From NCBI RefSeq assembly GCF_003790525.1, contig NZ_CP033635.1: a stretch of DNA of 64,000 nt; one strand, 5' to 3'. This stretch comes from Escherichia coli (GTDB taxonomy: Bacteria; Pseudomonadota; Gammaproteobacteria; Enterobacterales; Enterobacteriaceae). Below the pieces are notes generated by a model, which saw nothing but the letters and a program-made list of their open reading frames with translations, did not search any database and was not told the origin of the DNA. Each line of letters begins with the position of its first letter. The first letter of the stretch is position 1. The translations under genes and the position numbers were made by a program. Positions 13,836 through 64,000 of this stretch are shown here, in pieces.

Positions 13836-13866
13836 AAAAAGCCGGAGCAGTCTCCCGCTCCGGCTT
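13836..13866 (-). terminator. Rho-independent terminator downstream of deoD (end of deo operon)
   Basis: Inverted repeat GCCGGAGC...GCTCCGGC followed on the minus strand by a T-run (plus strand AAAAA at 13836-13840). Confidence 0.65.
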
Positions 13867-13897
13867 CACAAGGCAATCGCCTTTCAGCGAAACACAA

Positions 13898-43587: not shown

Positions 43588-44493
43588 ATGGTACAAAGTA
43601 TCAATCTTCTTCGAACCAGTGATACTCCTATGGCTTATAGCATCGATATCATCTCCTGCATTACCGAACGGTTTATGGCGTTAACAGCCACTGAAAAGCG
43701 TATCGCACAATTTATTCTTGATGACGTCTCTGCCGCAGTAGAGTTGCCAATTGCTGAGCTGGCACGGTTAACGCAAACCAGTCAGGCGTCGGTGACGCGT
43801 TTTGCCCGTGCACTGGGGTGCAAAGATGTCCGCGAGTTGAAAGTCAAACTGGCGCAGTCACTGGCTGTCGGGCAGCGGTTTATTCTCGATGTACCGGATC
43901 TTGACGGTGTTCAGGGGATCTACGAAGCGATTATTAGCGTGCTGGAGACGCATCGTCGTTCGCTGGATATGAATGCCATCAGCCAGGCTGTAAGCTGGTT
44001 AAGTCAGGCGCGGCAAATTCTTGCGTTAGGAACTGGCGGCGGTTCCACTATCTGTTCACAGGAGATTCAGTACCGTTTATTCCGTCTGGGGCTACCGGTG
44101 GTCAGTCAGAATGATGCCCTGATGATGAGAATGATGTGCTCGGCAGTCATGCCGCAGGATGTGGTGATTGTGCTTTCGCTGGGCGGTTATACACCGGAAA
44201 TCATCGAAAGTGCGGCAATCGCCCGTCAGTATGGCGCGCGTGTTATTGCCATTACGCCAGCACAAACACCGCTGGCGGAACAGGTGGATCTGGTATTGCC
44301 GTTACTGGTTCAGGAAAGTGATTACATCTTTAAGCCCACCCCTTCCCGCTACGCGATGTTAGCCATGGTCGATGTACTGGCAACAGAACTGGCAATGGCA
44401 AATAAAGCGCAGGCGAAAGATCGCCTGCGGCGGATAAAACTCGTGTTAGACAGCCACCGTGGGGGCGCTAACCGCCAGCCACTTGGCGATTAG
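43588..44493 (+). CDS. RpiR/MurR-family transcriptional regulator (N-terminal HTH, C-terminal SIS domain); start may be the internal Met at 43630
   Basis: HTH segment ELPIAELARLTQTSQASVTRFARALG and SIS-like ILALGTGGGS; divergent from tsr. Confidence 0.8.
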   Translation: MVQSINLLRTSDTPMAYSIDIISCITERFMALTATEKRIAQFILDDVSAAVELPIAELARLTQTSQASVTRFARALGCKDVRELKVKLAQSLAVGQRFILDVPDLDGVQGIYEAIISVLETHRRSLDMNAISQAVSWLSQARQILALGTGGGSTICSQEIQYRLFRLGLPVVSQNDALMMRMMCSAVMPQDVVIVLSLGGYTPEIIESAAIARQYGARVIAITPAQTPLAEQVDLVLPLLVQESDYIFKPTPSRYAMLAMVDVLATELAMANKAQAKDRLRRIKLVLDSHRGGANRQPLGD

Positions 44494-44502
44494 CATTGTC
44501 GG

Positions 44503-45972: not shown

Positions 45973-46074
45973 AATTCACATCCTGCCAGTAGAGAGAAAT
46001 TAATGTAAGAGTTCCCGGAGTGCTGAATGTATTCAGCACTCAATTGCGGTCTGTTTTTTTAATTCTTAAATTTA

Positions 46075-46470
46075 TTAGCGGGTCGCGTTATAACAGGTCA
46101 CATCGACTTCGACTTTACAATCGACAACCAGATCAGCCACACAACAAATACGTGCAGGTGGATTCTCGCCAAAAAATTCTCTGAATACTTTATTAAATGA
46201 CTGGAAATAGCGGGCGTCGGTCAGGATCACTTTCACGTGAACCACATCCACCAGGCTATAACCGGCTTCAGTCATGATGTCGACACAGTTTTGAATCGCC
46301 AGTCGTGACTGTTCAACGATTCCGCCTTCTACCACTTCACCGTTTTTCATGGGTGTTTGCCCGGAGACGTACAGCCAGCCGCCCGCCTCAACCGCCCTGG
46401 CAAAAGGCAAATGCTGCCCGCCAGTGCCTGTTCCACCTTCCGTACCGTAACGTTTAATGCTCATATTCAC
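46075..46470 (-). CDS. RidA/YjgF-family reactive-intermediate (enamine/imine) deaminase
   Basis: 131-aa ORF with family motifs LYVSGQTP, ARY..FN.V...FF and conserved Arg in ENPPARICCV. Confidence 0.8.
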   Translation of the reverse strand: MNMSIKRYGTEGGTGTGGQHLPFARAVEAGGWLYVSGQTPMKNGEVVEGGIVEQSRLAIQNCVDIMTEAGYSLVDVVHVKVILTDARYFQSFNKVFREFFGENPPARICCVADLVVDCKVEVDVTCYNATR

Positions 46471-46473
46471 TCC

Positions 46474-47925
46474 TTAATGTGAGGTCTGCCGGCGCAGGAA
46501 GCGTCCCGCACGGCCTGTAATATGTTTATCGGGACCATAGCTCATAACGCCGTTCACCATCACCGCCTCAATGCCATCTGCCGGGCGTTTGGGATCAGAA
46601 AAGCTGGCAACATCACGAATGGTTTGTGGATCGAACAACACCAGGTCCGCAAAATAGCCAACTTTCACCAGCCCACGCTGGGGCAGGCGAAAACGGCTGG
46701 CAGAAAGCCCGGTCATTTTGTGGATAGCCGTGGTCAGTGGGAATAAGCCTTCATCACGGCAATAGTGGCCCAGCACGCGAGGGAAGGCGCCCCATAAACG
46801 TGGATGCGGCATGGGATCATTGGGCAGGCCGTCAGAGCCAATCATACTGACCGGATAACTCAACACTCGGCGGACGTCGCGCTCGTCCATGTTGTAATAG
46901 ATAGCCCCGGCAGGCATTAGCAGCTTCGCGGCCTCCAGCATACTCATCTGCCAGTCGATGGCGATTTGCGCCAGTGTTTTCCCGGCCTGCTGCGGATGTG
47001 TTTGTGACCAGGTGATCACAATATCGAATTCGTCGGTGACTTGTTTGAGATCCAGCGTTGAAGAGCTGGCTGAGTAAGGGTAGACATCGCAGCCAATTTC
47101 CTGGTGTTGACGCATTTGGTCAAAAAAGGCCAACGTTTCTTTTGTCCGCCCCCAGTTTTTCGCCCCGGCGCATTTATGGTGGGAAACCACGACAGGCACT
47201 TTGCCATGACGCCCAATACGAAACGCCTCATCCAGGGCATCGAGAATCGGTTCAAATTCAGAACGCAGATGGGTGGTATAAACGCCCTTCTCACCGGCTA
47301 ATTCTTCCGCCAGCGCCATGACTTCTTCGGTAGTCGCCTGAAATGCCGTTGCATAGGCCAGCCCGGAACTTAACCCCAGCGCCCCCTGACTCAACGCCAG
47401 ACGTAAGTCGGCACGCATAGCGGCAATTTCATCCACCGTCGCCGGGCGAAACAGGTCGTCCATATGGTTATTACGCAGCGCCGTATGACCAATCAGCGTG
47501 CCAACGTTCAGTGACGGCCTGGCTGCTTCCACTGCCTGGGCATAGCTTTCAACGGTAGGATAAATAAAGTGCTCTGCTTCCCCCAACAGATTCATCGGGT
47601 CAGGAACTTCACCTTTCATTTTCGCCGACGCCGCACTAATCCCGCAGTTACCGACAATCACCGTAGTGATCCCCTGGCTGATCTTTGGCAGATATTCCGG
47701 GATGCGAATAACGTTGATATCGTCATGGGTATGAACGTCGATAAACCCTGGTGCCAGCACCCGCCCTTCCCCGTCAATGACCTGCTGCGCCGTAACGTTA
47801 AGCGCAGGGGCAATATCGACAATCCGATCACCTGTTATTGCCACGTCACCGCGAAATTCAGGGCCGCCGCTACCGTCGATAACGGTCACATTTTTGATTA
47901 ACCAGTCAACCTGCATGTTCGTCAC
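46474..47925 (-). CDS. N-acyl-D-amino-acid deacylase (D-aminoacylase), amidohydrolase superfamily
   Basis: 483-aa ORF with N-terminal IKNVTVIDGSG...GFIDVHTHDD metal-binding motif typical of D-aminoacylases. Confidence 0.8.
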   Translation of the reverse strand: MTNMQVDWLIKNVTVIDGSGGPEFRGDVAITGDRIVDIAPALNVTAQQVIDGEGRVLAPGFIDVHTHDDINVIRIPEYLPKISQGITTVIVGNCGISAASAKMKGEVPDPMNLLGEAEHFIYPTVESYAQAVEAARPSLNVGTLIGHTALRNNHMDDLFRPATVDEIAAMRADLRLALSQGALGLSSGLAYATAFQATTEEVMALAEELAGEKGVYTTHLRSEFEPILDALDEAFRIGRHGKVPVVVSHHKCAGAKNWGRTKETLAFFDQMRQHQEIGCDVYPYSASSSTLDLKQVTDEFDIVITWSQTHPQQAGKTLAQIAIDWQMSMLEAAKLLMPAGAIYYNMDERDVRRVLSYPVSMIGSDGLPNDPMPHPRLWGAFPRVLGHYCRDEGLFPLTTAIHKMTGLSASRFRLPQRGLVKVGYFADLVLFDPQTIRDVASFSDPKRPADGIEAVMVNGVMSYGPDKHITGRAGRFLRRQTSH

Positions 47926-48116
47926 TCCATTTCTGCAATGGTGACAAGTTAACCATTTACAAGGACGAAAAACAGTGGAAAACTACGCAAAACCCAGATG
48001 ATTTTATGATACTTTTATTCATAAATAATAAGATAAATAAACTAAATATTTATATTTCATTTAGTTACAAATGATACTCACATCCGATACGGTGAAAAAC
48101 TTAAAAGGTAAATGTT

Positions 48117-49337
48117 ATGAAATACCACTCAGAACCTCTGGTTCCCCATAAATCTGCCCTGATGCAAATGCCCGCAAATCTCCTTGCCGAAGATGTCTGT
48201 TTACCTGCCGCGATCATTAAAAAGCAGGCCCTGGAGAACAACATTACGTGGATGCAACGCTACGCTGACGCGCGCGGCGTTTCACTGGCACCGCACGGTA
48301 AAACCACCATGACGCCGTGGATTTTTCAGGCGCAGCAGGCGGCTGGTGCCTGGGCAATAGGTGTCGGTAGCGCATGGCAGGCTGGTGCGGCAATGGCGAG
48401 CGGTATTCAGCGAGTGCTGATGGTTAACCAGCTGGTCGGCAAGGCGAATATGCAGTTGATTGCCCAGTTGCAACGACATTACCCGACGGTCGATTTTATC
48501 AGCTGTATCGACAGCATTGAGAACGCCCGCGCTTTGTCTGCCTTTTTTGCCAGTCAGCAACAGACACTGAACGTGATGATTGAGTTGGGTGTCCCCGGCG
48601 GGCGCTGTGGTTGCCGCTCAAGGGATGCCGCACTGACACTGGCTAAACAGGCAGCCCAATTACCGGGGTTACGCCTGCGGGGGCTTGAGTTATATGAAGG
48701 CGTTTTACACGGTGACGATCCACAACCGCAGGTAGAAGCTCTGCTGCGGGATGCCGCACAACTGGCCTGTGATATGGCAAGTCTGGTTGATGGCGAGTTT
48801 ATTCTCACCGGAGCAGGCACGGTCTGGTATGACGTGGTGTGCAATATCTGGCTGGCGGCAGAAAAGCCTGATAACTGCCGCATTGTTATTCGCCCTGGCT
48901 GCTACATCACTCACGACACCGGGATCTACGACGCGGCACAACAACAGTTGCTTGCCCGTGATCCTGTGGCTTGCGATCTGGCAGGCGATCTCACATCTGC
49001 ACTGGAACTGGTCGCCATGGTGCAATCGGTGCCGGAAGCTGATCGTGCGGTGGTTAATTTTGGTAAGCGTGATTGCGCCTTCGACGCCGGACTGCCGCAA
49101 CCAGTCGCCCACTATCGCAACGGCAAATCACTGGCATTTGATCCACAGGCGATTCGCAGTACAGGCATTATGGATCAGCACTGCATGTTGCAGTTGGGTG
49201 CCGACAGCGACGTGCAAGTGGGGGATATTCTGGTGTTTGGCACATCGCATCCGTGCCTGACCTTCGACAAATGGAAAACGTTGTTATTGACTGATGACGA
49301 CTACAACGTACTGGCAGAATTAGACACTCTCTTCTAA
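48117..49337 (+). CDS. DSD1-family PLP enzyme (alanine racemase N-terminal fold; D-serine dehydratase / D-threonine aldolase-like)
   Basis: 406-aa ORF with probable PLP-lysine motif LAPHGKTT; RBS AAGG upstream of ATG; divergent from the aminoacylase gene. Confidence 0.72.
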   Translation: MKYHSEPLVPHKSALMQMPANLLAEDVCLPAAIIKKQALENNITWMQRYADARGVSLAPHGKTTMTPWIFQAQQAAGAWAIGVGSAWQAGAAMASGIQRVLMVNQLVGKANMQLIAQLQRHYPTVDFISCIDSIENARALSAFFASQQQTLNVMIELGVPGGRCGCRSRDAALTLAKQAAQLPGLRLRGLELYEGVLHGDDPQPQVEALLRDAAQLACDMASLVDGEFILTGAGTVWYDVVCNIWLAAEKPDNCRIVIRPGCYITHDTGIYDAAQQQLLARDPVACDLAGDLTSALELVAMVQSVPEADRAVVNFGKRDCAFDAGLPQPVAHYRNGKSLAFDPQAIRSTGIMDQHCMLQLGADSDVQVGDILVFGTSHPCLTFDKWKTLLLTDDDYNVLAELDTLF

Positions 49338-49604: not shown

Positions 49605-51755
49605 ATGGATACTAAAAAGATATTCAAGCACATACCCTGGGTGATTCTCGGAATCATCGGTGCATTCTGCCTCGCGGTAGTTGCATTACGTCGGGGGGAG
49701 CACGTCAGTGCCCTGTGGATCGTGGTCGCCTCTGTGTCGGTGTATCTGGTGGCTTATCGCTACTACAGTCTGTACATCGCCCAGAAGGTGATGAAACTCG
49801 ACCCCACGCGCGCGACGCCTGCGGTTATTAACAACGACGGTCTGAACTATGTTCCGACCAACCGTTACGTGTTGTTTGGTCACCACTTCGCCGCTATCGC
49901 CGGTGCTGGTCCGCTGGTTGGTCCGGTTCTCGCCGCGCAGATGGGCTACCTGCCTGGCACGCTGTGGCTGCTGGCGGGGGTAGTGCTGGCCGGTGCGGTA
50001 CAGGACTTTATGGTGCTGTTTATCTCCTCTCGCCGTAACGGCGCATCTCTCGGTGAGATGATCAAAGAAGAGATGGGACCAGTACCGGGGACTATCGCGC
50101 TGTTTGGCTGTTTCTTAATCATGATCATCATCCTTGCCGTCCTGGCGCTGATTGTGGTTAAAGCCCTGGCCGAAAGTCCGTGGGGTGTCTTCACCGTTTG
50201 CTCAACCGTACCGATTGCGCTGTTTATGGGTATCTACATGCGCTTTATTCGTCCGGGGCGTGTGGGTGAAGTCTCTGTCATTGGTATCGTGCTGCTGGTT
50301 GCCTCTATCTACTTCGGTGGCGTGATTGCTCACGATCCGTACTGGGGTCCGGCACTGACCTTTAAAGACACCACCATTACCTTCGCGCTGATTGGCTATG
50401 CGTTTGTTTCCGCACTGCTGCCAGTGTGGCTGATCCTCGCACCGCGCGACTATCTGGCAACCTTCCTGAAAATCGGCGTTATCGTCGGCCTGGCGCTGGG
50501 TATCGTGGTGCTGAACCCGGAACTGAAAATGCCTGCGATGACCCAGTACATTGACGGTACTGGCCCGCTGTGGAAAGGCGCTCTGTTCCCGTTCCTGTTC
50601 ATCACCATCGCCTGTGGTGCGGTATCTGGCTTCCACGCGCTGATCTCTTCCGGTACGACGCCGAAACTGCTGGCTAACGAAACCGACGCGCGTTTCATTG
50701 GCTACGGCGCAATGCTGATGGAGTCCTTCGTGGCGATTATGGCGCTGGTTGCTGCGTCCATCATCGAACCGGGTCTTTACTTCGCGATGAACACCCCGCC
50801 TGCTGGCCTTGGCATCACCATGCCTAACCTGCATGAAATGGGTGGCGAGAACGCGCCGATCATCATGGCGCAGCTGAAAGACGTTACCGCACACGCGGCA
50901 GCGACCGTCAGCTCCTGGGGCTTCGTGATTTCGCCAGAGCAGATCCTGCAAACAGCGAAAGATATTGGTGAGCCTTCTGTCCTGAACCGTGCAGGTGGTG
51001 CGCCGACGCTGGCGGTAGGTATCGCTCACGTGTTCCACAAAGTGCTGCCGATGGCTGACATGGGCTTCTGGTATCACTTCGGTATTCTGTTCGAAGCCCT
51101 GTTCATCCTGACCGCGCTGGATGCGGGTACCCGTTCTGGCCGCTTTATGCTGCAAGACCTGCTGGGTAACTTCATCCCGTTCCTGAAAAAAACCGACTCT
51201 CTGGTTGCCGGTATCATCGGTACTGCGGGCTGTGTGGGTCTGTGGGGGTACCTGCTGTATCAGGGCGTGGTCGATCCGCTGGGCGGCGTTAAGAGCCTGT
51301 GGCCGCTGTTCGGTATCTCCAACCAGATGCTGGCAGCCGTAGCGCTGGTACTGGGCACCGTTGTGCTGATTAAGATGAAGCGCACCCAATACATCTGGGT
51401 AACTGTTGTTCCGGCTGTATGGCTGCTTATCTGCACCACCTGGGCGCTGGGCCTGAAACTGTTCAGCACCAACCCGCAGATGGAAGGCTTCTTCTACATG
51501 GCAAGCCAGTACAAAGAGAAGATTGCTAACGGTACTGACCTGACGGCACAGCAGATTGCCAACATGAACCACATCGTTGTGAACAACTACACCAACGCGG
51601 GCCTGAGTATTCTGTTCCTGATTGTGGTGTACAGCATCATCTTCTACGGTTTCAAAACCTGGCTGAAGGTGCGTAACAGCGACAAACGTACTGACAAAGA
51701 AACTCCGTACGTTCCAATCCCGGAAGGCGGCGTGAAGATCTCTTCGCACCACTAA
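49605..51755 (+). CDS. btsT: Pyruvate/H+ symporter BtsT (YjiY), CstA family
   Basis: ORF track 49590..51755; conserved start MDTKKIFKHIPWVILGIIGAFCLAVVAL. Confidence 0.95.
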   Translation: MDTKKIFKHIPWVILGIIGAFCLAVVALRRGEHVSALWIVVASVSVYLVAYRYYSLYIAQKVMKLDPTRATPAVINNDGLNYVPTNRYVLFGHHFAAIAGAGPLVGPVLAAQMGYLPGTLWLLAGVVLAGAVQDFMVLFISSRRNGASLGEMIKEEMGPVPGTIALFGCFLIMIIILAVLALIVVKALAESPWGVFTVCSTVPIALFMGIYMRFIRPGRVGEVSVIGIVLLVASIYFGGVIAHDPYWGPALTFKDTTITFALIGYAFVSALLPVWLILAPRDYLATFLKIGVIVGLALGIVVLNPELKMPAMTQYIDGTGPLWKGALFPFLFITIACGAVSGFHALISSGTTPKLLANETDARFIGYGAMLMESFVAIMALVAASIIEPGLYFAMNTPPAGLGITMPNLHEMGGENAPIIMAQLKDVTAHAAATVSSWGFVISPEQILQTAKDIGEPSVLNRAGGAPTLAVGIAHVFHKVLPMADMGFWYHFGILFEALFILTALDAGTRSGRFMLQDLLGNFIPFLKKTDSLVAGIIGTAGCVGLWGYLLYQGVVDPLGGVKSLWPLFGISNQMLAAVALVLGTVVLIKMKRTQYIWVTVVPAVWLLICTTWALGLKLFSTNPQMEGFFYMASQYKEKIANGTDLTAQQIANMNHIVVNNYTNAGLSILFLIVVYSIIFYGFKTWLKVRNSDKRTDKETPYVPIPEGGVKISSHH

Positions 51756-51763
51756 CCGTGTTT

Positions 51764-51792
51764 AGCCCCGCTTCGGCGGGGCTTTGTTCTTA
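51764..51792 (+). terminator. Hairpin terminator after btsT
   Basis: GCCCCGC-TTCG-GCGGGGC followed by TTTGTTCTT. Confidence 0.5.
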
Positions 51793-51804
51793 TCAGAGTG
51801 AACT

Positions 51805-52008
51805 ATGTTTGGTAACTTAGGACAGGCAAAAAAATATCTCGGCCAGGCGGCGAAGATGTTGATTGGCATTCCAGACTACGACAACTACGTCGAGCATATG
51901 AAGACCAACCATCCCGACAAGCCGTACATGAGCTATGAAGAATTCTTCCGCGAACGCCAGAACGCGCGCTACGGCGGCGATGGTAAAGGCGGTATGCGCT
52001 GTTGTTAA
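51805..52008 (+). CDS. yjiX: Small protein YjiX (YbdD/YjiX family, DUF466)
   Basis: 67-aa [61 protein letters not shown]. Confidence 0.85.
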
Positions 52009-52018
52009 TGGAGAGAGC

Positions 52019-52975
52019 ATGAACCCGATTGCAGTTACCCTACTCACCGGTTTTTTAGGCGCGGGCAAAACCACCCTGCTGCGCCATATTCTTAATGAAC
52101 AGCACGGCTACAAAATTGCCGTGATTGAAAACGAATTCGGCGAAGTCTCCGTTGATGATCAACTGATTGGCGATCGCGCCACGCAGATCAAAACGCTGAC
52201 CAACGGCTGCATCTGTTGTTCGCGCTCCAACGAGCTGGAGGACGCGCTACTCGACCTGCTGGATAATCTCGACAAGGGCAATATTCAGTTCGACCGTCTG
52301 GTCATTGAATGCACAGGCATGGCCGATCCCGGCCCGATTATTCAGACCTTTTTCTCCCATGAGATTTTATGCCAGCGTTACCTGCTGGACGGCGTGATTG
52401 CGCTGGTGGATGCGGTACATGCCGATGAGCAGATGAACCAGTTCACCATCGCCCAGTCACAGGTTGGCTACGCCGACCGTATTCTGCTGACTAAAACCGA
52501 CGTCGCAGGTGAAGCAGAAAAACTGCGCGAACGCCTGGCACGCATCAACGCCCGCGCACCGGTCTACACCGTCACCCACGGCGACATCGACCTGGGCCTG
52601 TTGTTCAACACCAACGGTTTTATGCTGGAAGAAAACGTCGTCAGCACCAAACCGCGTTTCCACTTTATCGCGGATAAACAAAACGATATTTCGTCGATTG
52701 TGGTGGAACTGGATTACCCGGTAGATATCAGCGAAGTTTCCCGCGTGATGGAAAACCTGCTGCTGGAATCGGCGGATAAACTGCTGCGTTACAAAGGGAT
52801 GCTGTGGATTGACGGCGAACCTAACCGCCTGCTGTTCCAGGGTGTCCAGCGCCTCTACAGCGCCGACTGGGACAGGCCATGGGGCGATGAAAAACCGCAT
52901 AGCACGATGGTGTTTATCGGGATTCAGCTGCCGGAGGAAGAGATTCGGGCGGCGTTTGCGGGGTTAAGGAAGTAA
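52019..52975 (+). CDS. yjiA: CobW/HypB-family GTPase YjiA
   Basis: ORF track 51935..52975; conserved start MNPIAVTLLTGFLGAGKTTLLRHIL (P-loop) and CxCC motif GCICCS. Confidence 0.9.
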   Translation: MNPIAVTLLTGFLGAGKTTLLRHILNEQHGYKIAVIENEFGEVSVDDQLIGDRATQIKTLTNGCICCSRSNELEDALLDLLDNLDKGNIQFDRLVIECTGMADPGPIIQTFFSHEILCQRYLLDGVIALVDAVHADEQMNQFTIAQSQVGYADRILLTKTDVAGEAEKLRERLARINARAPVYTVTHGDIDLGLLFNTNGFMLEENVVSTKPRFHFIADKQNDISSIVVELDYPVDISEVSRVMENLLLESADKLLRYKGMLWIDGEPNRLLFQGVQRLYSADWDRPWGDEKPHSTMVFIGIQLPEEEIRAAFAGLRK

Positions 52976-53305
52976 TACCCTTAACCTACTAATACGAAGC
53001 GGACGAGGATAAAACCCTATCATTTTCCGTTCGCTTCACTATTTTATTTCGTTCCAACACCCATTAAAATTAAAAATATAATTCTGCCATAATTTCCTGA
53101 ACACAGATGTAATTACATTGCCACCACTCATACTTTTAAAAATAATTTATATGATAGACGTCCTATTGAGGCGTAATAGATGTATTAATTTCCAAATACG
53201 CAAACATTCTGGTACAGTCCAAAAAAGAAAAATCATCAACCAAAACAATCAGCAAATAAATTAACAACGATTGAATCATAATCAACACGAATACAAGAGA
53301 TTAAC

Positions 53306-55156
53306 ATGGCAACAATAATCCCAACAATCAGTAGCTGCAACGATAAAATTACTGCCGGAGAGAAAAGGCTGGCAAGAATTCTGGAAAGAGGACTAGGCGA
53401 AGAGTGCTGCTGTTGGTATGACATTCCCACGGGTGATAAGCATCTTCACCCAGATTTTATGATACTTTCGCCAGAAAAAGGCATTATTTTTCTCGAGGTA
53501 AAAGATTGGTTTATTACAAAAATAAAAAAAGCCAACAAGTCTAATGTGTTGTATGAGACACAAAATGGTATTCAATCTTTAAAGAATCCGATAGAACAAG
53601 TTAGGCGATATGCTTTCGAAGCTGTAAACCAGTTAAAAAAAGACCCCCTATTGTGCCAACAGGATGATCGTTACAATGGCAATCTTCTTTTCCCCTATGG
53701 ATATGGCGTCTACTTTAGTAATATTACACGAGAAGCATTAAATAATAAATTTACTCAAGAAGAGCTGCTCGGGATCTTCCCATCAGATCTCATCATCTGC
53801 AAAGACGAAATAAATGAATTCATGTCAAAAGAGGATGTTTCATCCAAAATACATTCGTTGATTAAATATGACTTCAAATGTCATGCTACACAAGAACAGT
53901 TGAACAGGATTAGATGGCACTTATACCCCGATGTCAGAATAGAAAGGGAAAAGAGAAGTAAAAACCGTGATGAATTTAGTGTCGATGCACCAACCATCAT
54001 TTCTATCCTGGATACTCAACAGGAACAACTTGCCAGAAGTATGAGAGATGGCCACCGGATCATTCATGGTGTTGCAGGTTCAGGGAAGACATTGATCCTC
54101 TATCATCGCTGTCAGGAATTAGCGAAAAAAAATGACAGCGAAAAGCCAATTCTTGTCATTTGCTACAATATTACTTTAGCCAAAAAACTTCGGTCGATGT
54201 TCATCAATCATCCCTTTGCAGAGAAAATAAAGGTTAAAAATTTTCATGCTTGGTGTTTCCAACAAATTAAAGAAAACAAGATCACTATTCCAGAAGGGGA
54301 TAATATTTTTGAAAATATGGAGCTAGCGTTGACTGATGGTTTCAAGACAGGAAAAATAAAACCAGAACAATACAGCGCTGTATTAATTGATGAAGGACAT
54401 GATTTTAAGCCAGAATGGTTAAAAATCCTGGCAAAAATGACTGACTCTCAGGACGAGAATTTGCTATTCCTTTATGATGATGCTCAGTCAATTTACCAAA
54501 AAAAGAAAGCATTAGACTTTACACTGTCCAGCGTAGATATTAAAGCGACAGGACGCACAACCATTCTTAATATAAATTATAGAAACACACAGCAAATCCT
54601 ACACTTTGCCAGTTGCATTGCATTTAATTATCTTAATAGCCATATCGATAGTTCTTTAACCTATCATAAACCTGCTGCGGGAGGAATGAATGGCGATTAT
54701 CCCAACCTTGAACATTTCGACACACAGGACGAAGAAATAGCACGAGCAGTCGAATGGATTACAGAGCAAAATGAACAAGGGATTCCGTGGTCTGAAATTG
54801 CTATACTAAGTCCATCAACTCACACCCTTTCTAACTCTCTAAGCTCTGTACTTGAATCGAAAAACATCCCCTTTAATCTTATTGTAAGCTCTGCAGATAA
54901 AAAGTCCTGGACGCCAGAACAAGAGCGTATTTCTGTTATGCCATTACCCAGCAGTAAAGGACTTGAGTTTCACTCAGTTGTCATTATTGATGCAGCGAGA
55001 ACACGGGATAATAGCGATGATTTGAGTGAGGATATAAAGAGACTCTATGTAGGTTTTACCCGAGCACGTTGCAATCTCTTGGTAACCTTGCACGGTGAAG
55101 GTGCGTTAAATGAGCATCTACTAAAAACCTATGAGCAAAGCCCACAATATATGTAA
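53306..55156 (+). CDS. NERD (PD-(D/E)xK-like nuclease) domain fused to SF1 UvrD-like helicase/ATPase, 616 aa; candidate single-gene defence protein
   Basis: N-terminal HPDFMILSPEKGIIFLEVKDW (D..E.K nuclease-like core); Walker A GVAGSGKT (aa 255-262), Walker B LIDEGHDF, motif VI-like VGFTRAR; gene is low-GC and sits where K-12 has mrr-hsdRMS. Confidence 0.8.
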   Translation: MATIIPTISSCNDKITAGEKRLARILERGLGEECCCWYDIPTGDKHLHPDFMILSPEKGIIFLEVKDWFITKIKKANKSNVLYETQNGIQSLKNPIEQVRRYAFEAVNQLKKDPLLCQQDDRYNGNLLFPYGYGVYFSNITREALNNKFTQEELLGIFPSDLIICKDEINEFMSKEDVSSKIHSLIKYDFKCHATQEQLNRIRWHLYPDVRIEREKRSKNRDEFSVDAPTIISILDTQQEQLARSMRDGHRIIHGVAGSGKTLILYHRCQELAKKNDSEKPILVICYNITLAKKLRSMFINHPFAEKIKVKNFHAWCFQQIKENKITIPEGDNIFENMELALTDGFKTGKIKPEQYSAVLIDEGHDFKPEWLKILAKMTDSQDENLLFLYDDAQSIYQKKKALDFTLSSVDIKATGRTTILNINYRNTQQILHFASCIAFNYLNSHIDSSLTYHKPAAGGMNGDYPNLEHFDTQDEEIARAVEWITEQNEQGIPWSEIAILSPSTHTLSNSLSSVLESKNIPFNLIVSSADKKSWTPEQERISVMPLPSSKGLEFHSVVIIDAARTRDNSDDLSEDIKRLYVGFTRARCNLLVTLHGEGALNEHLLKTYEQSPQYM

Positions 55157-55174
55157 AAATGATAAATTATCTCC

Positions 55175-55206
55175 ATAACGCCCGGTAACGCTGTACCGGG
55201 CGTTAT
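55175..55206 (+). terminator. Stem-loop downstream of the NERD-helicase gene (possible terminator; no clear T-run)
   Basis: 13-bp perfect inverted repeat ATAACGCCCGGTA ... TACCGGGCGTTAT with 6-nt loop. Confidence 0.4.
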
Positions 55207-55288
55207 GAATGTATATCTAAGATATTAGTCACGCCTGATAGCCGCTACCAAAAACGCCATCATCTCCCTCTCATCTTTGCTGTGATAA

Positions 55289-55594
55289 AAGCGTACCATT
55301 TTGCTGTTAAATTCCAGCGCTTTAGCCACTGGAATTAACAAGTTCAAACTTCCGACAACGAAGTTCCAGTTATTACAAAAATTACTGGCAAAAGAGATGA
55401 AAAGCGTAGTTGACAACACATCGAAATATACTGACTGGAGTAAACGCGATGATATTAAAGCGAAACTGAAAGTTGAACTTATTCTGCTTCTACACAAGCA
55501 TAAGTTCCCGCCAGTAGCGAATGATGATGTTTATATGGGTGTGCTGGCACAGGCAGAGAATTTTAAAGAACATCATATGAGTGCTTTAAATTAA
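55289..55594 (+). pseudogene. Possible 3' remnant of a type I restriction enzyme R-subunit (HsdR C-terminal region)
   Basis: Frame opens only at 55289 after a stop, no upstream coding partner; product ...TDWSKRDDIKAKLKVELILLLHKHKFPPVANDDVYMGVLAQAENFKEH resembles the conserved HsdR C-terminal YPP-containing motif as recalled. Confidence 0.4.
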
Positions 55595-55713
55595 TTATGA
55601 AGGCCGGATACACTTTGTTATCCGGCCATTGTGAATTAACGTTAATTTCTCTTCCAGATATTTCCAGTAACGCTTTTATTATTTTCTATTTTTAGCTGGA
55701 CTTTCCCTGTATT

Positions 55714-55733
55714 TACTGATGATATGTCCAGGT
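55714..55733. promoter_or_regulatory. LexA (SOS) box upstream of symE
   Basis: TACTGATGATATGTCCAGGT contains CTG-N10-CAG with AT-rich spacer about 80 bp upstream of symE start. Confidence 0.5.
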
Positions 55734-55749
55734 ATTTAGCGCGGTGCGA

Positions 55750-55830
55750 ATGTGCGCCAACACACCCGCACCGCTCATCACAATCACTATTTATGGAGAA
55801 TAGTAATCATGACTGACACGCATTCTATTG
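55750..55830 (-). ncRNA. symR: Expected position of SymR antisense sRNA overlapping the symE 5' end (approximate)
   Basis: Placed by established knowledge that SymR is transcribed antisense across the symE RBS and start codon; ends not determined from sequence. Confidence 0.35.
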
Positions 55831-56150
55831 CACAACCGTTCGAAGCAGAAGTCTCCCCGGCAAATAACCGTCAATTAACCGTGAGTTATGCGAGTCGCTA
55901 CCCGGATTACAGCCGTATTCCCGCCATCACCCTGAAAGGTCAGTGGCTGGAAACCGCCGGTTTTGCTACCGGCACGGCGGTAGATGTCAAAGTGATGGAA
56001 GGCTGTATTGTCCTCACCGCCCAACCACCCACCGCCGAAGAGAGCGAACTGATGCAGTCACTGCGCCAGGTGTGCAAGCTGTCAGCGCGTAAACAAAAGC
56101 AGGTGCGGGAATTTATTGGGGTGATTGCCGGTAAACAGAAAGTCGCCTGA
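55809..56150 (+). CDS. symE: SOS-induced type I toxin SymE (YjiW), AbrB/MazE-fold endoribonuclease-like
   Basis: ORF track 55752..56150; conserved start [48 protein letters not shown]. Confidence 0.9.
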
Positions 56151-56196
56151 TACATTGACCCGGTAGCGCCAGTGCTACCGGGTATTATTCGCCGTG

Positions 56197-58290
56197 TTAG
56201 ACCAACGCGCTCTCCATCTGTTTTTCAAATGCCTGACGAATTAATCCCATAACGTAAGGAAGTTGTGCGAGGTCGCTGAAACCAATTTCCACATCACCAT
56301 TGCCCCAGCGCCCAACATTTGTCACATCTTTGGCAATACCTTTCGGATCGACCAGTTCATGAAACTGCATATTAAGCGACAATCGCAGTCGGCTTTTTTG
56401 CGGCACAACATCAACAAAATTCGTTTCCGCTTTAAACGCAATATAGAGCTTCAATACTTCCTGCGTGATCCCTGCGTCCAGGCGCATAACTTCATCGCGA
56501 AGATGATCAAATAACACCCGGCTATGCGAACCATCAGCAAGAAAAGGATAATCACTCAGGCTATAACTGGTTTTGTTTTCAGGCTGCGCCCGATAAACAG
56601 CTAAAACCTCTTCAGGAAGAGCAGGCGCTTGCCAGACCTGAACCGCGAGATCGGCCAGACGATCGGCACGGGCGCGAATGGCGGCTTCATCCCATTTTTC
56701 GCACTGTCCAAGACCGATATTCAAATAAAGCGGGCTATGCTTAAAGCCGTCTTCAATATCGCGTTTTTCCGCGAAAGGTCTGTCACTGTAGCGGGAGTTA
56801 TAGCGCGTTAATGTGAGATTCCCCAACGTATGTAACAGTTCTTTATGCACACGCTGCCAGTCGCTTCCCAGCTCTTCACGCCATTTAGCCGACAAATTTT
56901 CGTTCTGCGGCATAATATGCTCAATCGTAAACTCTTCCACGCGCTCTCTGCGTTTATCGTTTTCCAGTCGTCGTAACCAGTAGCTGCGACTGCGGAAGTT
57001 ATAGAGATCGCGAACTTTTAATTCCCGTTTAAATTCATCATCGTTGGGGAAACGACGATATGAAGGCAGATTCAGAAAATGTACCTGAATACTTTCCAGA
57101 TATTTTTCTTTAATAATGACCTTATAAAAGGTAGCAAACGTCTTGTTAAGAGAATTTGTCGGAATCGCACATACTGCACGGCGGAAAACATAAGATTCAA
57201 TTAAACGAATTATGCTCAGGAAATCTTCGTGAGGCAAATCGCCATTTTTATAGTCATGATAAAGCGCCAGTAAGAAAGGATACGCCACATCGACCTTTAA
57301 CTCGCGCAAATCCTGAAAAGCCGTAGCAAGCGATTTGTCACTTTCTTTACCCAATGCCATTGCACAGTAATACTCCGCGTAGATGTGAATATCTTCAACC
57401 AGGTGATCCACGCCTTTTTCAGCAACACTCTGGCTGCGGGCATGGAGTTTAAATGCCTCATAGACTTCATCTGTACGAGGGATCTCCCCCGTTTTTACCG
57501 TCAGATAATGACGCATAAAGCTGTCAAAATATTCGCTGTAACCTTGCTGACCAAAAGCGACTTCCATTGGACGCCAGTGATCTTCATACAACCGGGTTTG
57601 ATGCTCTGGTTCGAGACCCATCAGAATAAAATTGCGCACCAGATCGGCCTGACTTAACGCCTTACCGGTAGAGTTCATACTTTCAAAAATCAGTTGCGGA
57701 TTATCCTGACCACGATTAAGCGCCACATCGACAATTAATAATTTTGCTAACCCACGACATAAGGGGATCAAGTCATCACCGAGTTTGGCAATTTGCTCAT
57801 CAAAGAAAGTAAAGTTTTCCATTATTCGATGGGAATAGTTTTCTGGCATTGGTCTTTGTTTTATTAACGCCAGCAAACTGTCTTTATCAGTCTCGGTCAG
57901 CAGTAATTTAAATCCTTTCTCGCCGGACTCATAAGGATTGAGTAAATAATAATTACGCAATTTCATTGCTGAAAAGCCATCAAAAACTTCGTCTTCGCCA
58001 AGATGACGCGATAAAGCCTCAATCAGCAACATTGCGGTCGTCAGCCTTTGTTGACCATCAATGACCAGTAACGGAGAAATACCAGAAACCTGATACAACC
58101 CCTGCTCAATATAAACAACCGAACCGATAAAATGCGCTGATATATCGTCACGCTTTCCGGCACGAATGATGTCGTCCCAAAGTTGCCGACATTGTTGTTC
58201 TGTCCATGAATAAGTCCGTTGATAAATGGGAATCACAAACTGCTGCGAACGTTTTAAAAAATCGAGTAGGCGGGCTTCTGTAGCTTTCAT
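56197..58290 (-). CDS. DUF262 (ParB-like NTPase) + DUF1524 (His-Me finger nuclease) fusion, GmrSD-family putative type IV modification-dependent restriction endonuclease
   Basis: 697-aa ORF with N-terminal VIDGQQRLTT (DGQQR motif) and C-terminal EFTIEHIMPQN...H..LGNLTL nuclease motif; convergent with symE, in the slot where K-12 has mcrBC. Confidence 0.78.
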   Translation of the reverse strand: MKATEARLLDFLKRSQQFVIPIYQRTYSWTEQQCRQLWDDIIRAGKRDDISAHFIGSVVYIEQGLYQVSGISPLLVIDGQQRLTTAMLLIEALSRHLGEDEVFDGFSAMKLRNYYLLNPYESGEKGFKLLLTETDKDSLLALIKQRPMPENYSHRIMENFTFFDEQIAKLGDDLIPLCRGLAKLLIVDVALNRGQDNPQLIFESMNSTGKALSQADLVRNFILMGLEPEHQTRLYEDHWRPMEVAFGQQGYSEYFDSFMRHYLTVKTGEIPRTDEVYEAFKLHARSQSVAEKGVDHLVEDIHIYAEYYCAMALGKESDKSLATAFQDLRELKVDVAYPFLLALYHDYKNGDLPHEDFLSIIRLIESYVFRRAVCAIPTNSLNKTFATFYKVIIKEKYLESIQVHFLNLPSYRRFPNDDEFKRELKVRDLYNFRSRSYWLRRLENDKRRERVEEFTIEHIMPQNENLSAKWREELGSDWQRVHKELLHTLGNLTLTRYNSRYSDRPFAEKRDIEDGFKHSPLYLNIGLGQCEKWDEAAIRARADRLADLAVQVWQAPALPEEVLAVYRAQPENKTSYSLSDYPFLADGSHSRVLFDHLRDEVMRLDAGITQEVLKLYIAFKAETNFVDVVPQKSRLRLSLNMQFHELVDPKGIAKDVTNVGRWGNGDVEIGFSDLAQLPYVMGLIRQAFEKQMESALV

Positions 58291-58386
58291 TCTGACGTCT
58301 TTCCGTGAAGCGATGATTTCGCAATAATAACCACTTCCTTGTGGAGGTTATAGAGAAATCCTGTTTATCCGCGACGAACTGCCCCA

Positions 58387-58551
58387 TCACTCCACATCCT
58401 CCCTGCGTAACCCAATATCCCTCAACCGCTCATCACTCATCTGCTGTAACACCCGCCGGGCCTGCATTTGCCGCCGCCAACGCCTCACTGCCTGCCAGAG
58501 TTGCACAAGTCCAATAAACGGTGCTTTAGCTTTGTTTTCGTGAAATTCCAT
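58387..58551 (-). CDS. yjiS: Small DUF1127 protein YjiS (54 aa; below the ORF-track length cutoff)
   Basis: Manual minus-strand translation MEFHENKAKAPFIGLVQLWQAVRRWRRQMQARRVLQQMSDERLRDIGLRREDVE. Confidence 0.8.
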   Translation of the reverse strand: MEFHENKAKAPFIGLVQLWQAVRRWRRQMQARRVLQQMSDERLRDIGLRREDVE

Positions 58552-58727
58552 CTGCTGCCTCCTCATCTTTCAGAGGCTTCATCATCCGCCTTCTGGCAGT
58601 TCACAATACAGATGCAAATATTAGTTTTATTTAACATACAGACAGGTTAAAACAGCATCTGCATCCGGTTTTTTAGCCTCATCTGTACCGGTTTTTCTCT
58701 CTGTATGGTCCAAATAAGGAATACAGC

Positions 58728-60140
58728 ATGACGCGTTATCAACATCTGGCGACTTTGCTTGCCGAGCGGATTGAGCAAGGGCTGTATCGTCACGGGGAGA
58801 AATTGCCGTCGGTGCGCAGCTTAAGTCAGGAGCACGGCGTCAGCATCAGTACCGTGCAGCAGGCGTACCAGACGCTGGAAACGATGAAGCTCATCACTCC
58901 GCAGCCGCGTTCGGGTTATTTTGTCGCACAACGTAAAGCCCAGCCGCCAGTACCGCCGATGACGCGTCCGGTGCAGCGCCCGGTGGAAATTACCCAGTGG
59001 GATCAGGTGCTGGATATGCTGGAGGCGCATAGCGACAGTTCCATTGTTCCGTTAAGTAAAAGCACGCCGGATGTCGAAACGCCCAGCCTGAAACCGCTGT
59101 GGCGGGAGCTAAGCCGGGTGGTGCAGCATAATCTGCAAACCGTTCTCGGTTATGACTTGTTAGCCGGCCAGCGGGTATTGCGCGAGCAGATTGCCCGCCT
59201 GATGCTCGACAGCGGCTCGGTGGTCACCGCCGATGACATCATCATCACCAGCGGCTGCCATAACTCGATGTCGCTGGCGTTGATGGCAGTGTGTAAACCG
59301 GGCGATATTGTCGCGGTCGAATCCCCCTGTTATTACGGTTCGATGCAGATGCTGCGCGGCATGGGCGTGAAAGTGATTGAAATCCCCACCGATCCAGAAA
59401 CAGGCATCAGCGTTGAAGCGCTGGAACTGGCGCTGGAGCAGTGGCCGATTAAAGGCATCATTCTGGTGCCAAACTGTAATAATCCGCTGGGATTTATTAT
59501 GCCGGACGCGCGCAAACGGGCCGTTCTCTCTCTCGCTCAGCGTCATGATATTGTGATTTTTGAAGATGATGTCTACGGCGAACTGGCGACGGAGTATCCG
59601 CGCCCGCGGACCATTCATTCCTGGGATATCGACGGGCGAGTGCTGTTGTGCAGCTCGTTCAGTAAAAGTATTGCTCCAGGCCTGCGCGTGGGTTGGGTCG
59701 CACCGGGGCGCTATCACGATAAACTGCTGCATATGAAATATGCCATCAGCAGCTTTAATGTGCCGTCCACGCAAATGGCGGCGGCAACGTTTGTGCTGGA
59801 AGGTCACTATCATCGCCATATCCGGCGGATGCGGCAGATCTATCAGCGCAATTTGGCGCTTTATACCTGCTGGATACGGGAATATTTTCCCTGCGAAATC
59901 TGTATTACGCGCCCGAAAGGCGGATTTTTACTGTGGATCGAATTGCCTGAACAGGTCGATATGGTTTGCGTTGCGCGGCAGCTATACCGCATGAAAATCC
60001 AGGTGGCGGCAGGCTCGATTTTCTCAGCTTCCGGCAAATACCGTAATTGTCTGCGCATCAACTGCGCTTTGCCGCTCAGCGAAACCTATCGCGAAGCACT
60101 GAAGCAAATTGGCGAAGCCGTGTATCGGGCAATGGAATGA
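58728..60140 (+). CDS. yjiR: MocR/GabR-type regulator YjiR (GntR HTH fused to PLP aminotransferase-like domain)
   Basis: 470-aa ORF with N-terminal HTH (LPSVRSLSQEHGVSISTVQQAYQTLE) and aminotransferase-like C-terminal domain. Confidence 0.9.
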   Translation: MTRYQHLATLLAERIEQGLYRHGEKLPSVRSLSQEHGVSISTVQQAYQTLETMKLITPQPRSGYFVAQRKAQPPVPPMTRPVQRPVEITQWDQVLDMLEAHSDSSIVPLSKSTPDVETPSLKPLWRELSRVVQHNLQTVLGYDLLAGQRVLREQIARLMLDSGSVVTADDIIITSGCHNSMSLALMAVCKPGDIVAVESPCYYGSMQMLRGMGVKVIEIPTDPETGISVEALELALEQWPIKGIILVPNCNNPLGFIMPDARKRAVLSLAQRHDIVIFEDDVYGELATEYPRPRTIHSWDIDGRVLLCSSFSKSIAPGLRVGWVAPGRYHDKLLHMKYAISSFNVPSTQMAAATFVLEGHYHRHIRRMRQIYQRNLALYTCWIREYFPCEICITRPKGGFLLWIELPEQVDMVCVARQLYRMKIQVAAGSIFSASGKYRNCLRINCALPLSETYREALKQIGEAVYRAME

Positions 60141-60254
60141 ATTCGAAATAGTGGCGAGCCCCCTGATTTCCTCTCACGAATAGCGTGTGACTCGTTTTAT
60201 CTTTGCAGGGTCATCTCCACGTTCCAGCATGGCTTAGGCAAAATGCGCTTCGTT

Positions 60255-60360
60255 CATGCCGGATGCCATGTGAACACCTTACCAGGTCTACAAAATCTTT
60301 AAAATTCAATATATTTAATGGGTTATGTAGACCTGATAAGCGTAGCGCATCAGGCTGCTT
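60255..60360. repeat. REP-like elements between yjiR and rpnD
   Basis: GCCGGATGCC...CCTTACCAGGTCTACA and TGTAGACCTGATAAGCGTAGCGCATCAGGC palindromic units. Confidence 0.6.
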
Positions 60361-60382
60361 TGCGTTTGTCATCAGTCTCTGA

Positions 60383-61339
60383 TTAGTACTCGATCCATGG
60401 ATCGCGCTTGCTTTCAGGCAAGGGCTGCTCTAATGCCTGCATTTGCTCTGCCGAAAGTCCGGTATATCGTTGTATCCATTCAGGATCCGCCCCATTCTGC
60501 AACAACAATCGGAGGAGGCTCTTTTCCCCTTCTTCTTTCCCTTCTTTCCTCCCCCTCTCCCTTCCCAACAGCCATCCATCATTATGAATTCGCTCTGCAA
60601 TCGTCATTATTCGCTCCCTGTGTTGTGGCATTCGACGGATAAGTTCGCTGATAAACTCATTAAAACGCGCTTCATCGCCAGTCAGTAAAATGTAATTTAA
60701 CAGCGCGGTTATCTGGCTGTCATTAGCGCACCCTGTAACCAGTAATACTGCCAGTTGATCAATAAGCCCCATTAGATCGCGCTGGCGAATATGCTTTTGG
60801 ATCAACTCCAGCAGGGCGACTCTGCGATGCTGCACAATCTCGTCGTCTGGCACGACAGTGACATCCACCAGCGGGAACGCTGCGGTATAAAGCTTCCGCG
60901 CGGTAGCCGGGTCGGCAAATTCATCCAGCCAGCACAAAGACCAGGGGTAAGGACTACGGCTACTGTGATAAAACAGCATCGGGATGACCAGCGGTAGCGG
61001 CCGGCGTTTATCATGCTCGATATGGCGCTGCATCACCGCCATGGAATATCGCATCAGGCGAAAGGCCATATGGATATCCTCGCGGCTCTGATGTTCAATC
61101 ACCACATAAATATAGCCATCTCCTTCGCGGGTCTTTACCGACCACAGAATATCGGAATGTAGCGCCCGCAATTTTTCATCGACAAAGCTGGCGTATTCCA
61201 GTTTTAAGCTGTCGAGATCGCACAGTTCACGTAAATCTTTGGGTAAGTGGATCTCCATAAAATCCCGCGCGGTGTCAGGGTGGGTGAGAAAAGATTTAAA
61301 TAATGCGTCATGCGGCGTGCTGGTCGTGAAGTTTGTCAT
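60383..61339 (-). CDS. rpnD: Rpn-family recombination-promoting nuclease (YhgA-like, PD-(D/E)xK), intact 318-aa copy at the yjiP/yjiQ (rpnD) position
   Basis: [45 protein letters not shown]...[10 protein letters not shown] matches the Rpn/transposase_31 family N-terminus. Confidence 0.85.
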
Positions 61340-61805
61340 GGCGATCCGTCACCTGTAGATAAGATGGCCCGACTGTAGCGACTAACAAAACCATTCTCAC
61401 CCGGCAATTTCTCGTTCCCCGAGGTGCTTTCCAGGCTATTTTTGTTCCTCTGCAAACGATACATTTTTCCGGAAACAGGCTCGCGTTTTACATTTCCTGT
61501 ACCCGGCAGATATTCCCCTTTCCACCGCACTCTTTTGATTAACCGCAAATTTTAATTACACTTAAGGTGTATATTTTCTATGCAACCCATCAATTCAAGA
61601 GGTGTAATGTGCTGATGACTATTTGTAATCGTTATACATTCTGACCTGGAGTCAGAAGGTATTTCTCTGTCTGTGTGTTCACAGGCAGTGTGGTTGATTA
61701 CATGAAATTCAGTACATTTGCCCTTCTCGCCTGCCTTTCGTCATTACCGACGGTATTGAATTTCGTTTTCCCCATTGGGGTTCTCCGGACAAGGAGTTGT
61801 TTGTT

Positions 61806-63038
61806 ATGCCACGTTTTTTTGCCCGCCATGCCGCCACGCTGTTTTTCCCGATGGCGTTGATTTTGTATGACTTTGCTGCGTATCTGTCGACGGACCTGAT
61901 CCAGCCAGGGATCATTAATGTGGTCCGTGATTTTAATGCCGATGTCAGTCTGGCCCCGGCTGCCGTCAGTCTCTATCTCGCTGGAGGCATGGCATTGCAG
62001 TGGCTGCTGGGGCCGCTTTCCGACAGGATTGGCCGCAGGCCGGTGCTGATTAACGGGGCGTTAATTTTTACCCTTGCCTGCGCCGCGACAATGTTCACCA
62101 CGTCAATGACACAATTTCTTATCGCGCGTGCAATTCAGGGCACCAGTATCTGTTTTATTGCCACCGTTGGTTATGTCACGGTGCAGGAGGCGTTCGGACA
62201 GACAAAAGGGATCAAGTTGATGGCGATTATCACCTCCATCGTACTGATTGCGCCGATTATCGGCCCGCTTTCCGGCGCAGCTCTGATGCACTTTATGCAC
62301 TGGAAAGTCCTTTTTGCCATCATTGCGGTTATGGGTTTTATCTCATTTGTTGGCTTACTGTTGGCGATGCCAGAGACGGTGAAGCGCGGCGCGGTTCCGT
62401 TTAGCGCCAAAAGCGTCTTGCGCGATTTTCGTAATGTCTTTTGCAATCGGCTGTTCCTCTTTGGCGCAGCAACCATCTCTTTAAGCTATATCCCGATGAT
62501 GAGTTGGGTGGCTGTCTCGCCGGTGATCCTGATTGACGCAGGCGGCTTAACGACCTCGCAGTTCGCCTGGACACAGGTTCCGGTGTTCGGCGCGGTGATT
62601 GTTGCGAATGCCATCGTGGCGCGTTTCGTTAAAGATCCGACCGAACCGCGGTTTATCTGGCGTGCCGTGCCCATTCAACTGGCCGGCCTCGCACTGTTGA
62701 TTGTCGGCAATTTGCTGTCGCCACACGTCTGGCTGTGGTCGGTGCTGGGCACCAGTCTGTATGCTTTCGGGATTGGTTTGATTTTCCCGACCTTATTCCG
62801 CTTTACGCTGTTTTCCAATAACTTACCGAAAGGGACCGTCTCCGCATCGCTAAATATGGTGATCCTGATGGTGATGTCGGTCTCGGTCGAAATCGGCCGC
62901 TGGCTGTGGTTTAACGGCGGTCGCTTGCCGTTTCATCTGTTAGCCGTTTTAGCGGGCGTTATCGTCGTTTTCACCCTGGCGGGATTGCTCAATCGCGTGC
63001 GCCAGCATCAGGCTGCCGAGCTGGCGGAGGAGCGGTGA
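61806..63038 (+). CDS. mdtM: Multidrug efflux MFS transporter MdtM (YjiO)
   Basis: ORF track 61797..63038; conserved start [27 protein letters not shown]; MFS motif [13 protein letters not shown]. Confidence 0.9.
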
Positions 63039-63078
63039 TTTTTGCGCGATCCTGCCGTCAGGCTCTATTCTTAACGTT

Positions 63079-64000
63079 ATGAATAAACTCATTGAACTCA
63101 GACGCGCCAAAATGTTGGCGCTCTCTTTACTGCTTATCGCCGCTGCTACCTTTGTCGTTACGCTGTTTTTGCCGCCCAATTTTTGGGTGAGCGGCGTGAA
63201 GGCGATTGCTGAAGCGGCGATGGTCGGCGCGCTGGCGGACTGGTTTGCGGTGGTGGCGCTATTTCGCCGCGTGCCGATTCCGATCATTTCTCGTCATACG
63301 GCGATTATCCCGCGTAATAAAGACCGGATTGGCGAAAATCTCGGTCAGTTCGTGCAGGAAAAATTTCTCGATACCCAATCGCTGGTGGCATTGATTCGAC
63401 GTCACGAACCGGCGTTGTTGATTGGCAACTGGTTTAGTCAGCCAGAAAACGCCCGCCGCGTTGGTCAGCATCTGTTGCAGATCATGAGTGGTTTTCTTGA
63501 ACTGACCGATGATGCGCGTATTCAGCGCCTGCTTAAGCGCGCAGTCCATCGGGCGATTGATAAGGTCGATCTTTCCGGCACCAGTGCGTTGATGCTGGAG
63601 AGTATGACCAAAAACGATCGTCATCAGGTGCTGCTGGATACGCTGATCGCACAGTTGATCGCCCTTCTCCAGCGCGATAAATCGCGCAAGTTTATCGCCC
63701 AGCAGATTGTTCGCTGGCTGGAGAGTGAGCATCCACTGAAAGCCAAAATTTTGCCCACTGAATGGCTGGGCGAACATAGCGCGGAGTTGGTTTCTGACGC
63801 GGTGAATTCTTTGCTTGATGATATTAGTCGCGATCGTGCGCATCAGATCCGCCATGCGTTTGATCGCGCCACCTTCGCCCTGATCGACAAGCTGAAAAAC
63901 GATCCGGAAATGGCAGCGCGAGCCGATGCCGTAAAAAGCTATCTGAAAGAAGATGAAGCTTTTAATCGCTATCTCAGTGAATTGTGGGGGGATTTACGGG
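63079..64000 (+). CDS. yjiN: Inner-membrane protein YjiN (DUF445); 5' part only, continues beyond window end
   Basis: Open frame from ATG at 63079 to window end, [36 protein letters not shown]; absent from ORF track because no stop in window. Confidence 0.85.

Follow-up and report, generated by a model that had tools for sequence, protein, structure and literature searches.

Whether a short reading frame wedged between a restriction gene and a regulator gene is a real gene, and whether it belongs with the defence genes on one side of it or with the chromosome on the other, is the question raised by positions 58387-58551 (minus strand) of the stretch of Escherichia coli DNA analysed here (64,000 nucleotides of NZ_CP033635.1; hereafter the window). 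The frame has 54 codons and a TGA stop. Its translation (MEFHENKAKAPFIGLVQLWQAVRRWRRQMQARRVLQQMSDERLRDIGLRREDVE followed by the stop) agrees letter for letter with that given in the original prediction, which was made from the sequence alone and had recognised an Arg-rich, 54-aa DUF1127 protein, YjiS; Arg accounts for 10 of the 54 residues (18.5%). The ORF positions likewise agree with the predicted location on the minus strand, between a GmrSD-like ORF (56197-58290, minus, 697 aa) and yjiR (58728-60140, plus, 470 aa).

Family membership was determined by profile search, the check that had been proposed for DUF1127. The protein matched Pfam PF06568 (DUF1127, now labelled "YjiS-like") with 46.6 bits against a gathering cut-off of 23.3 (E = 2.8e-12), and the profile was covered in full (1-37 of 37) at aa 18-54. 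Besides the score above the gathering threshold, the protein carries the Arg-rich core of the family and, near the C-terminus, the conserved D-I/V-G-L motif described for YjiS (PMC11707872), here DIGL at aa 45-48. Homologues with E ≤ 0.001 numbered 151, some of them ~72% identical and with no genus assigned. Across 20 YjiS homologues, M1-E5, W25, Q37-E41, L43, D45, G47, L48 and R50 were invariant and I46 varied between I, V and L. RefSeq annotates yjiS at exactly these coordinates (WP_000394263.1, "DUF1127 domain-containing protein"). NCBIfam holds no model for YjiS, and a PDB sequence search returned chance matches only (E ≥ 0.43) and no solved structure. An AlphaFold2 model computed from a 20-sequence alignment predicted a single helix spanning residues 10-45 (pLDDT 68); it is a moderately confident model and adds nothing decisive to the mechanism.

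Selection on the frame was assessed against K-12 and between genera. YjiS of the window is identical to K-12 YjiS at 51 of 54 positions (K7R, A31T and R44K, with R7, T31 and K44 being the K-12 residues), and this high identity and the divergent arrangement with yjiR place it in the same orthologous group. The two genes differ by 8 synonymous (Sd) and 3 non-synonymous (Nd) changes, which gives a dN/dS of 0.084; between genera pN was 0.16-0.23 and pS 0.47-1.1, the latter denoting synonymous sites that are heavily diverged or saturated. A chance ORF or a stretch of non-coding spacer might be suspected from the small size of the frame, from the hypervariable region that it adjoins and from an antisense 58-aa ORF over the same DNA (58341-58517). 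The antisense ORF, however, has no family match, and against such a reading stand the Pfam E-value, the purifying selection, a conserved start codon and ribosome-binding site, and published protein detection and mutant phenotypes, so that its probability is negligible. We conclude with high confidence that 58387-58551 is the chromosomal yjiS, a real, selected coding gene for a 54-residue DUF1127 protein. The gene was already known, annotated in RefSeq and experimentally studied, and its identification is ordinary; Pfam has a family bearing its name, two functional papers published in 2025 are devoted to it, and as a discovery it has little value.

The start codon was assigned from the translation signals and their conservation. 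A strong Shine-Dalgarno sequence (GAGGAGG; 58558-58564, minus) precedes the start codon at 58551 by 6 nt, and in an alignment of E. coli, Citrobacter, Klebsiella and one further relative its GGAGG core and ATGGAATTTCA were invariant. The program-made ORF listing begins five codons further upstream, at an in-frame ATG (58564-58566, minus) that yields a mechanical ORF of 59 aa, and a few database entries are 58-59 aa long (P0003 and P0005). This ATG overlaps the Shine-Dalgarno sequence, lacks one of its own and is not conserved between genera. Of the five codons that it would add, the first three differ between genera, whereas MEFHEN, with which all YjiS homologues begin, is invariant, and 54 aa is the length given by RefSeq and by most clusters. 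On these grounds we take the 54-aa form to be the right product and consider a 59-aa product starting at 58566 very improbable. The original prediction was to be given up if there was neither similarity to DUF1127 proteins nor a ribosome-binding site or expression evidence; what we found was the Pfam match and the GAGGAGG, and what the literature holds is expression and mutant phenotypes (PMC12501420, PMC11707872) and a sigma-70 promoter (PMC3946193).

With 59 aa, the mechanical ORF falls just under the 60-aa filter of the ORF listing, as had been noticed. The only other annotated coding sequences of <60 aa in the window are ytjA (22775-22936, minus, 53 aa, DUF1328) and nadS (7795-7962, minus, 55 aa), both known genes that lie outside the two accessory regions in which a re-run of ORF calling with a 30-codon minimum had been recommended; counting yjiS, the cut-off thus conceals three real genes of the window. 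The sweep itself brought no further hidden gene to light in 52976-58800 or in 13443-13897. In 52976-58800, none of ten ORFs of 30-90 aa, lying between genes or overlapping them, gave a Pfam match at E ≤ 0.1, and 13443-13897 contained only the already annotated 87-aa helix-turn-helix gene (13474-13737, plus), which lies between deoD and lplA. An Rfam search at a permissive threshold gave nothing credible at yjiS; two sub-threshold matches to archaeal C/D-box families over the yjiS 5' UTR (E of about 0.1; 20 bits against gathering thresholds of 45-54) were rejected as chance.

The window was also compared with E. coli SMS-3-5 (NC_010498.1). The yjiS region (query 58300-58730) was 100% identical, and 50300-64000 aligned with 0 mismatches. 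Over the full 64 kb there were six SNPs (3407, 18538, 27491, 34714, 39090 and 39815) and one 1-nt indel in a C-run (C7 against C8, at about 28766-28773), as in a near-identical strain or another version of the sequence; 39816-64000 is identical. Compared with K-12, the DNA of yjiS and the adjoining part of yjiR (58387-58900) was only 95.6% identical, and the synonymous divergence of yjiS between SMS-3-5 and K-12 (pS 0.235) is very high within one species; such divergence would be in keeping with the hyper-recombination known for the flanks of the hsd region. Elsewhere in the window, a five-gene islet (about 43630-49337) between btsT and tsr encodes an amino-acid deaminase, an N-acyl-D-amino-acid deacylase, RidA, a sodium:solute symporter and an RpiR regulator, and is absent from S88, 28Eco12 and H10407, in which btsT abuts tsr.

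The immigration control region of E. coli lies between yjiS and yjiA (PMC3874165, PMC2481252), and the gene had been proposed to mark the conserved right-hand edge of a variable defence slot. The position of the edge was confirmed. Homology to E. coli genomes that carry a different cassette breaks off 0-11 nt beyond the stop codon of yjiS, at 58376-58387 (matches starting at 677-688 of query 57700-58900 and at 78-88 of query 58300-58730), so the cassette starts directly beyond yjiS, and yjiA (51935-52975) lies on the opposite side of it. yjiS is outside the defence cargo, a framework gene beside which the immigration control region is swapped between strains. Its conservation did not hold to the same degree. 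In a census of 5,426 complete E. coli genomes, yjiA was matched in 5,382 (99%), the 3' half of yjiS in 4,159 and its 5' half with the spacer to yjiR in 3,738, so that yjiS is intact in about 69% of the genomes, reduced to a 93-nt remnant in about 8% and absent from about 23%. The 421 genomes of the second class retain only the last 93 nt of the gene; in the two that we inspected (DA33137 and PAR; loci L003 at 7781 and L004 at 7104) the remnant has an identical junction, at 58479/58480, and yjiR is deleted too. Other losses were seen in 28Eco12, which has a 42-aa YjiS variant and a yjiR stump abutting an rpn gene, and in ETEC H10407, in which yjiS, yjiR and rpn are all lost and an IS1 lies beside BrnTA. 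The distribution of yjiR has been described as accessory and lineage-based (PMC6550539). yjiS is an accessory gene, not a core gene.

The cassette present in this strain consists of a NERD/UvrD helicase, an hsdR remnant, symE/SymR and the GmrSD-like enzyme. The last of these (56197-58290, minus) is an intact type IV restriction enzyme with the Pfam domains GmrSD_N, GmrSD_C and DUF5655, and matched the PADLOC Orf5 model with 738 bits (aligned 1-542 of 543). RefSeq splits this ORF into a pseudogene fragment and a 387-aa CDS, though the DNA is identical to the record, and the split is probably an annotation artefact. The NERD+UvrD helicase (53306-55156, plus; PADLOC candidate C3a187, 468 bits) is directly beside yjiA, and a helicase of similar size occupies the same place in an enterobacterial relative (locus L012, 8949-10820) that has a marR efflux operon after its yjiS. 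Between the helicase and symE lies the C-terminal remnant of a type I restriction R subunit (55301-55594, plus; Pfam T1RH-like_C; RefSeq pseudogene 55385-55594), the scar of a lost hsd system. The SymR antitoxin RNA (55738-55814, minus; Rfam, 92.8 bits) is antisense to the 5' end of symE (55752-56150, plus) and is without annotation in the RefSeq feature table.

Proximity to this cargo raises the possibility that yjiS is functionally part of it, serving the GmrSD-like gene as leader or regulator or forming an operon with it. The two genes are on the same strand and are separated by only 96 nt (58291-58386, minus) with no recognisable intrinsic terminator, and the GmrSD-like neighbour is found next to yjiS in 879 of the 5,426 genomes. 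What follows yjiS elsewhere is nevertheless unrelated: yjiT in K-12, symE in S88, a marR efflux operon in Citrobacter and Klebsiella, and BrnTA in a further locus (L013). In the enterobacterial loci outside E. coli, the downstream genes are either a marR/MFP/DUF2955 operon or BrnT/BrnA, and beyond them lie yjiA, yjiX and cstA/btsT, or in Klebsiella yjiL/yjiM-type genes instead. The partner that yjiS keeps throughout is thus yjiR, while the genes downstream, defence cargo included, differ. In the 421 remnant genomes, moreover, the yjiS promoter and 5' half have gone while the first 0.7 kb of the GmrSD-like gene, the portion that our query covered, is still present. PADLOC assigned 0 defence families to YjiS, but gave strong matches for the GmrSD-like and NERD+UvrD proteins nearby. 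Membership of yjiS in the defence cassette is accordingly improbable.

Another possible coupling is that, in SMS-3-5-type genomes, the GmrSD-like gene might be partly transcribed by read-through from the predicted YjiR-controlled promoter of yjiS. This idea stems from the same-strand 96-nt spacer without a recognisable terminator, as opposed to the hairpins that follow yjiS in other genera, where a GC-rich hairpin lies within about 15-50 nt of the stop codon (with a T-run behind it only in Citrobacter). Folding of 58291-58386 gave a structure no better than those of shuffled sequences (z = -0.95), and a scan found no terminator-like site in the spacer, the same scan having also missed the published yjiS promoter. 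We regard read-through as unlikely. If it were true, a phage-defence enzyme would be coupled to whichever amino-compound or PLP-type signal YjiR responds to and to the phosphate-signalling role of YjiS.

On its other side, yjiS would be transcribed from within the 176-bp spacer that it shares with the divergent yjiR (58728-60140, plus), the gene for a MocR-family regulator with Pfam GntR (wHTH) and Aminotran_1_2 domains, whose NCBIfam MocR-like matches were all below cut-off. A 470-aa MocR-type gene is divergent from yjiS in all four of the non-E. coli enterobacterial loci that we compared, and the spacer measures 176-177 nt in E. coli, Citrobacter, Klebsiella and two further enterobacterial relatives. 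Genomic SELEX in K-12 located a sigma-70 promoter of yjiS, TTAACC-15-TAAAAG (PMC3946193), and its probable counterpart in the window is TTAACC (58650-58645), a 15-nt spacer and TAAAAC (58629-58624) on the minus strand. A consensus promoter and terminator scan of 58100-58900 returned nothing; because the published promoter was likewise missed, this silence is uninformative.

The same spacer contains five CTGTAT/ATACAG boxes (58606-58612, 58636-58642, 58682-58687, 58701-58706 and 58721-58726), which form a candidate operator for YjiR. The hexamer TCTGTA occurs 4 times within 99 bp of the spacer and 18 times in the whole 64 kb. In the alignment, the boxes were invariant in four genera while the flanking spacer sequence varied, and the invariant blocks comprised GCTGTAT, CCATACAGA, GTACAGA, TCTGTATGTTAAA and ATCTGTATT. 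One CTGTAT box falls inside the promoter spacer, and another follows the -10 element at a distance of about 12 nt. The translation-initiation region of yjiR coincides in part with the box at 58721-58726, which may owe its conservation to that instead. In what follows, we take COG5457 to be the DUF1127/YjiS family. Comparative genomics of MocR regulators lists a "YjiR - Enterobacteriales" regulog with COG5457 as its target in E. coli (b4340), Citrobacter, Enterobacter, Pectobacterium and Serratia, and reports the same target for Pseudomonas (PMC5320631). A TGT core is typical of MocR motifs (PMC5320631), and the upstream region of yjiS has a conserved repeat motif with such a core in the shared spacer. 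The YjiR operator was discarded as a new observation, since regulation of COG5457 by YjiR had already been predicted in 2016 (PMC5320631), and our literature search found no experimental report of YjiR binding or of a YjiR effect on yjiS in the searched library. As read from the boxes, which overlap the core promoter, direct control of yjiS by the MocR-type YjiR probably operates, at odds that we would place at even or slightly better.

For the function of the product we relied on published work. In E. coli, a yjiS mutant grows slightly less well, contains more pstS mRNA and takes up phosphate faster, and binding of YjiS to PhoR was detected by bacterial two-hybrid (in one fusion orientation only) and by Far-Western with purified proteins; E. 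coli yjiS also complements the pstS phenotype of a triple DUF1127 mutant of Agrobacterium (PMC12501420). The Salmonella protein is produced only when conditions induce SPI-2 and is associated with the inner membrane, peripheral binding via an N-terminal amphipathic helix having been inferred; SsrA/B are recovered with it in pull-downs, and it causes a delay in the escape from macrophages (PMC11707872). On these data the most likely mechanism is one in which YjiS would be a small, basic, helical, cytoplasmic regulator located at the inner membrane, where it would bind sensor histidine kinases, PhoR being the one in E. coli, and damp their output, so that binding to PhoR would restrain the Pho regulon, namely pstS expression and phosphate uptake. 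That modulation of PhoR is the main function of YjiS is the reading that we favour, with fair though not strong confidence, and the SMS-3-5 allele (K7, A31, R44) is inferred to behave as K-12 YjiS does.

A different main activity is suggested by Rhodobacter sphaeroides CcaF1, with which YjiS shares the DUF1127 domain and Arg richness (PMC8034643). CcaF1 binds RNA, and complementation of the Agrobacterium phosphate phenotype has been reported for it too (PMC8034643, PMC12501420), so YjiS might likewise act mainly on RNA, in sRNA maturation or mRNA stability, with the effects on PhoR and phosphate being secondary. CcaF1 differs from YjiS, however, in being a 71-aa RNA-binding protein whose gene is transcribed together with an sRNA cluster; here, yjiS is followed by none, the only Rfam hit being SymR, 2.6 kb away. 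There is in addition no evidence of RNA interaction for Salmonella YjiS, which fractionates with the inner membrane and has membrane proteins as interactors, and in vitro binding to purified PhoR has been seen for the E. coli protein. We consider a primarily RNA-binding role doubtful, and retain PhoR modulation as the preferred reading; by analogy with Rhodobacter, kinase binding may not be the sole activity of YjiS.

The remaining known systems differ in how closely they resemble the gene of the window. K-12 YjiS (b4341) has the same length, the same divergent yjiR, the same 176-nt spacer and the same place at the end of the immigration control region, and differs downstream, where AT-rich DNA and a yjiT pseudogene take the place of a GmrSD-like gene 96 nt away. 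YjiS of Salmonella Typhimurium is likewise a 54-aa DUF1127 protein with the Arg-rich core and the DIGL motif (PMC11707872), but is tied to SPI-2 and to SsrA/B, which are absent from E. coli. SDP1-3 of Agrobacterium tumefaciens share the Pfam DUF1127 domain and bind PhoR as E. coli YjiS does, although SDP1 has only about 24% homology to YjiS (PMC12501420); Alphaproteobacteria carry several DUF1127 paralogues, whereas E. coli has a single copy. The PhoQ modulators MgrB and SafA offer an analogy in the way they work, as small proteins that tune a sensor kinase (PMC12501420), but are unrelated to YjiS in sequence and are not members of its family; MgrB is a transmembrane protein that acts on the periplasmic domain, in contrast to the peripheral membrane binding inferred for Salmonella YjiS.

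As a boundary of the immigration control region, yjiS is textbook knowledge, and yjiS and yjiA, which bracket the region, serve as anchors that delimit the defence cargo in this genome.
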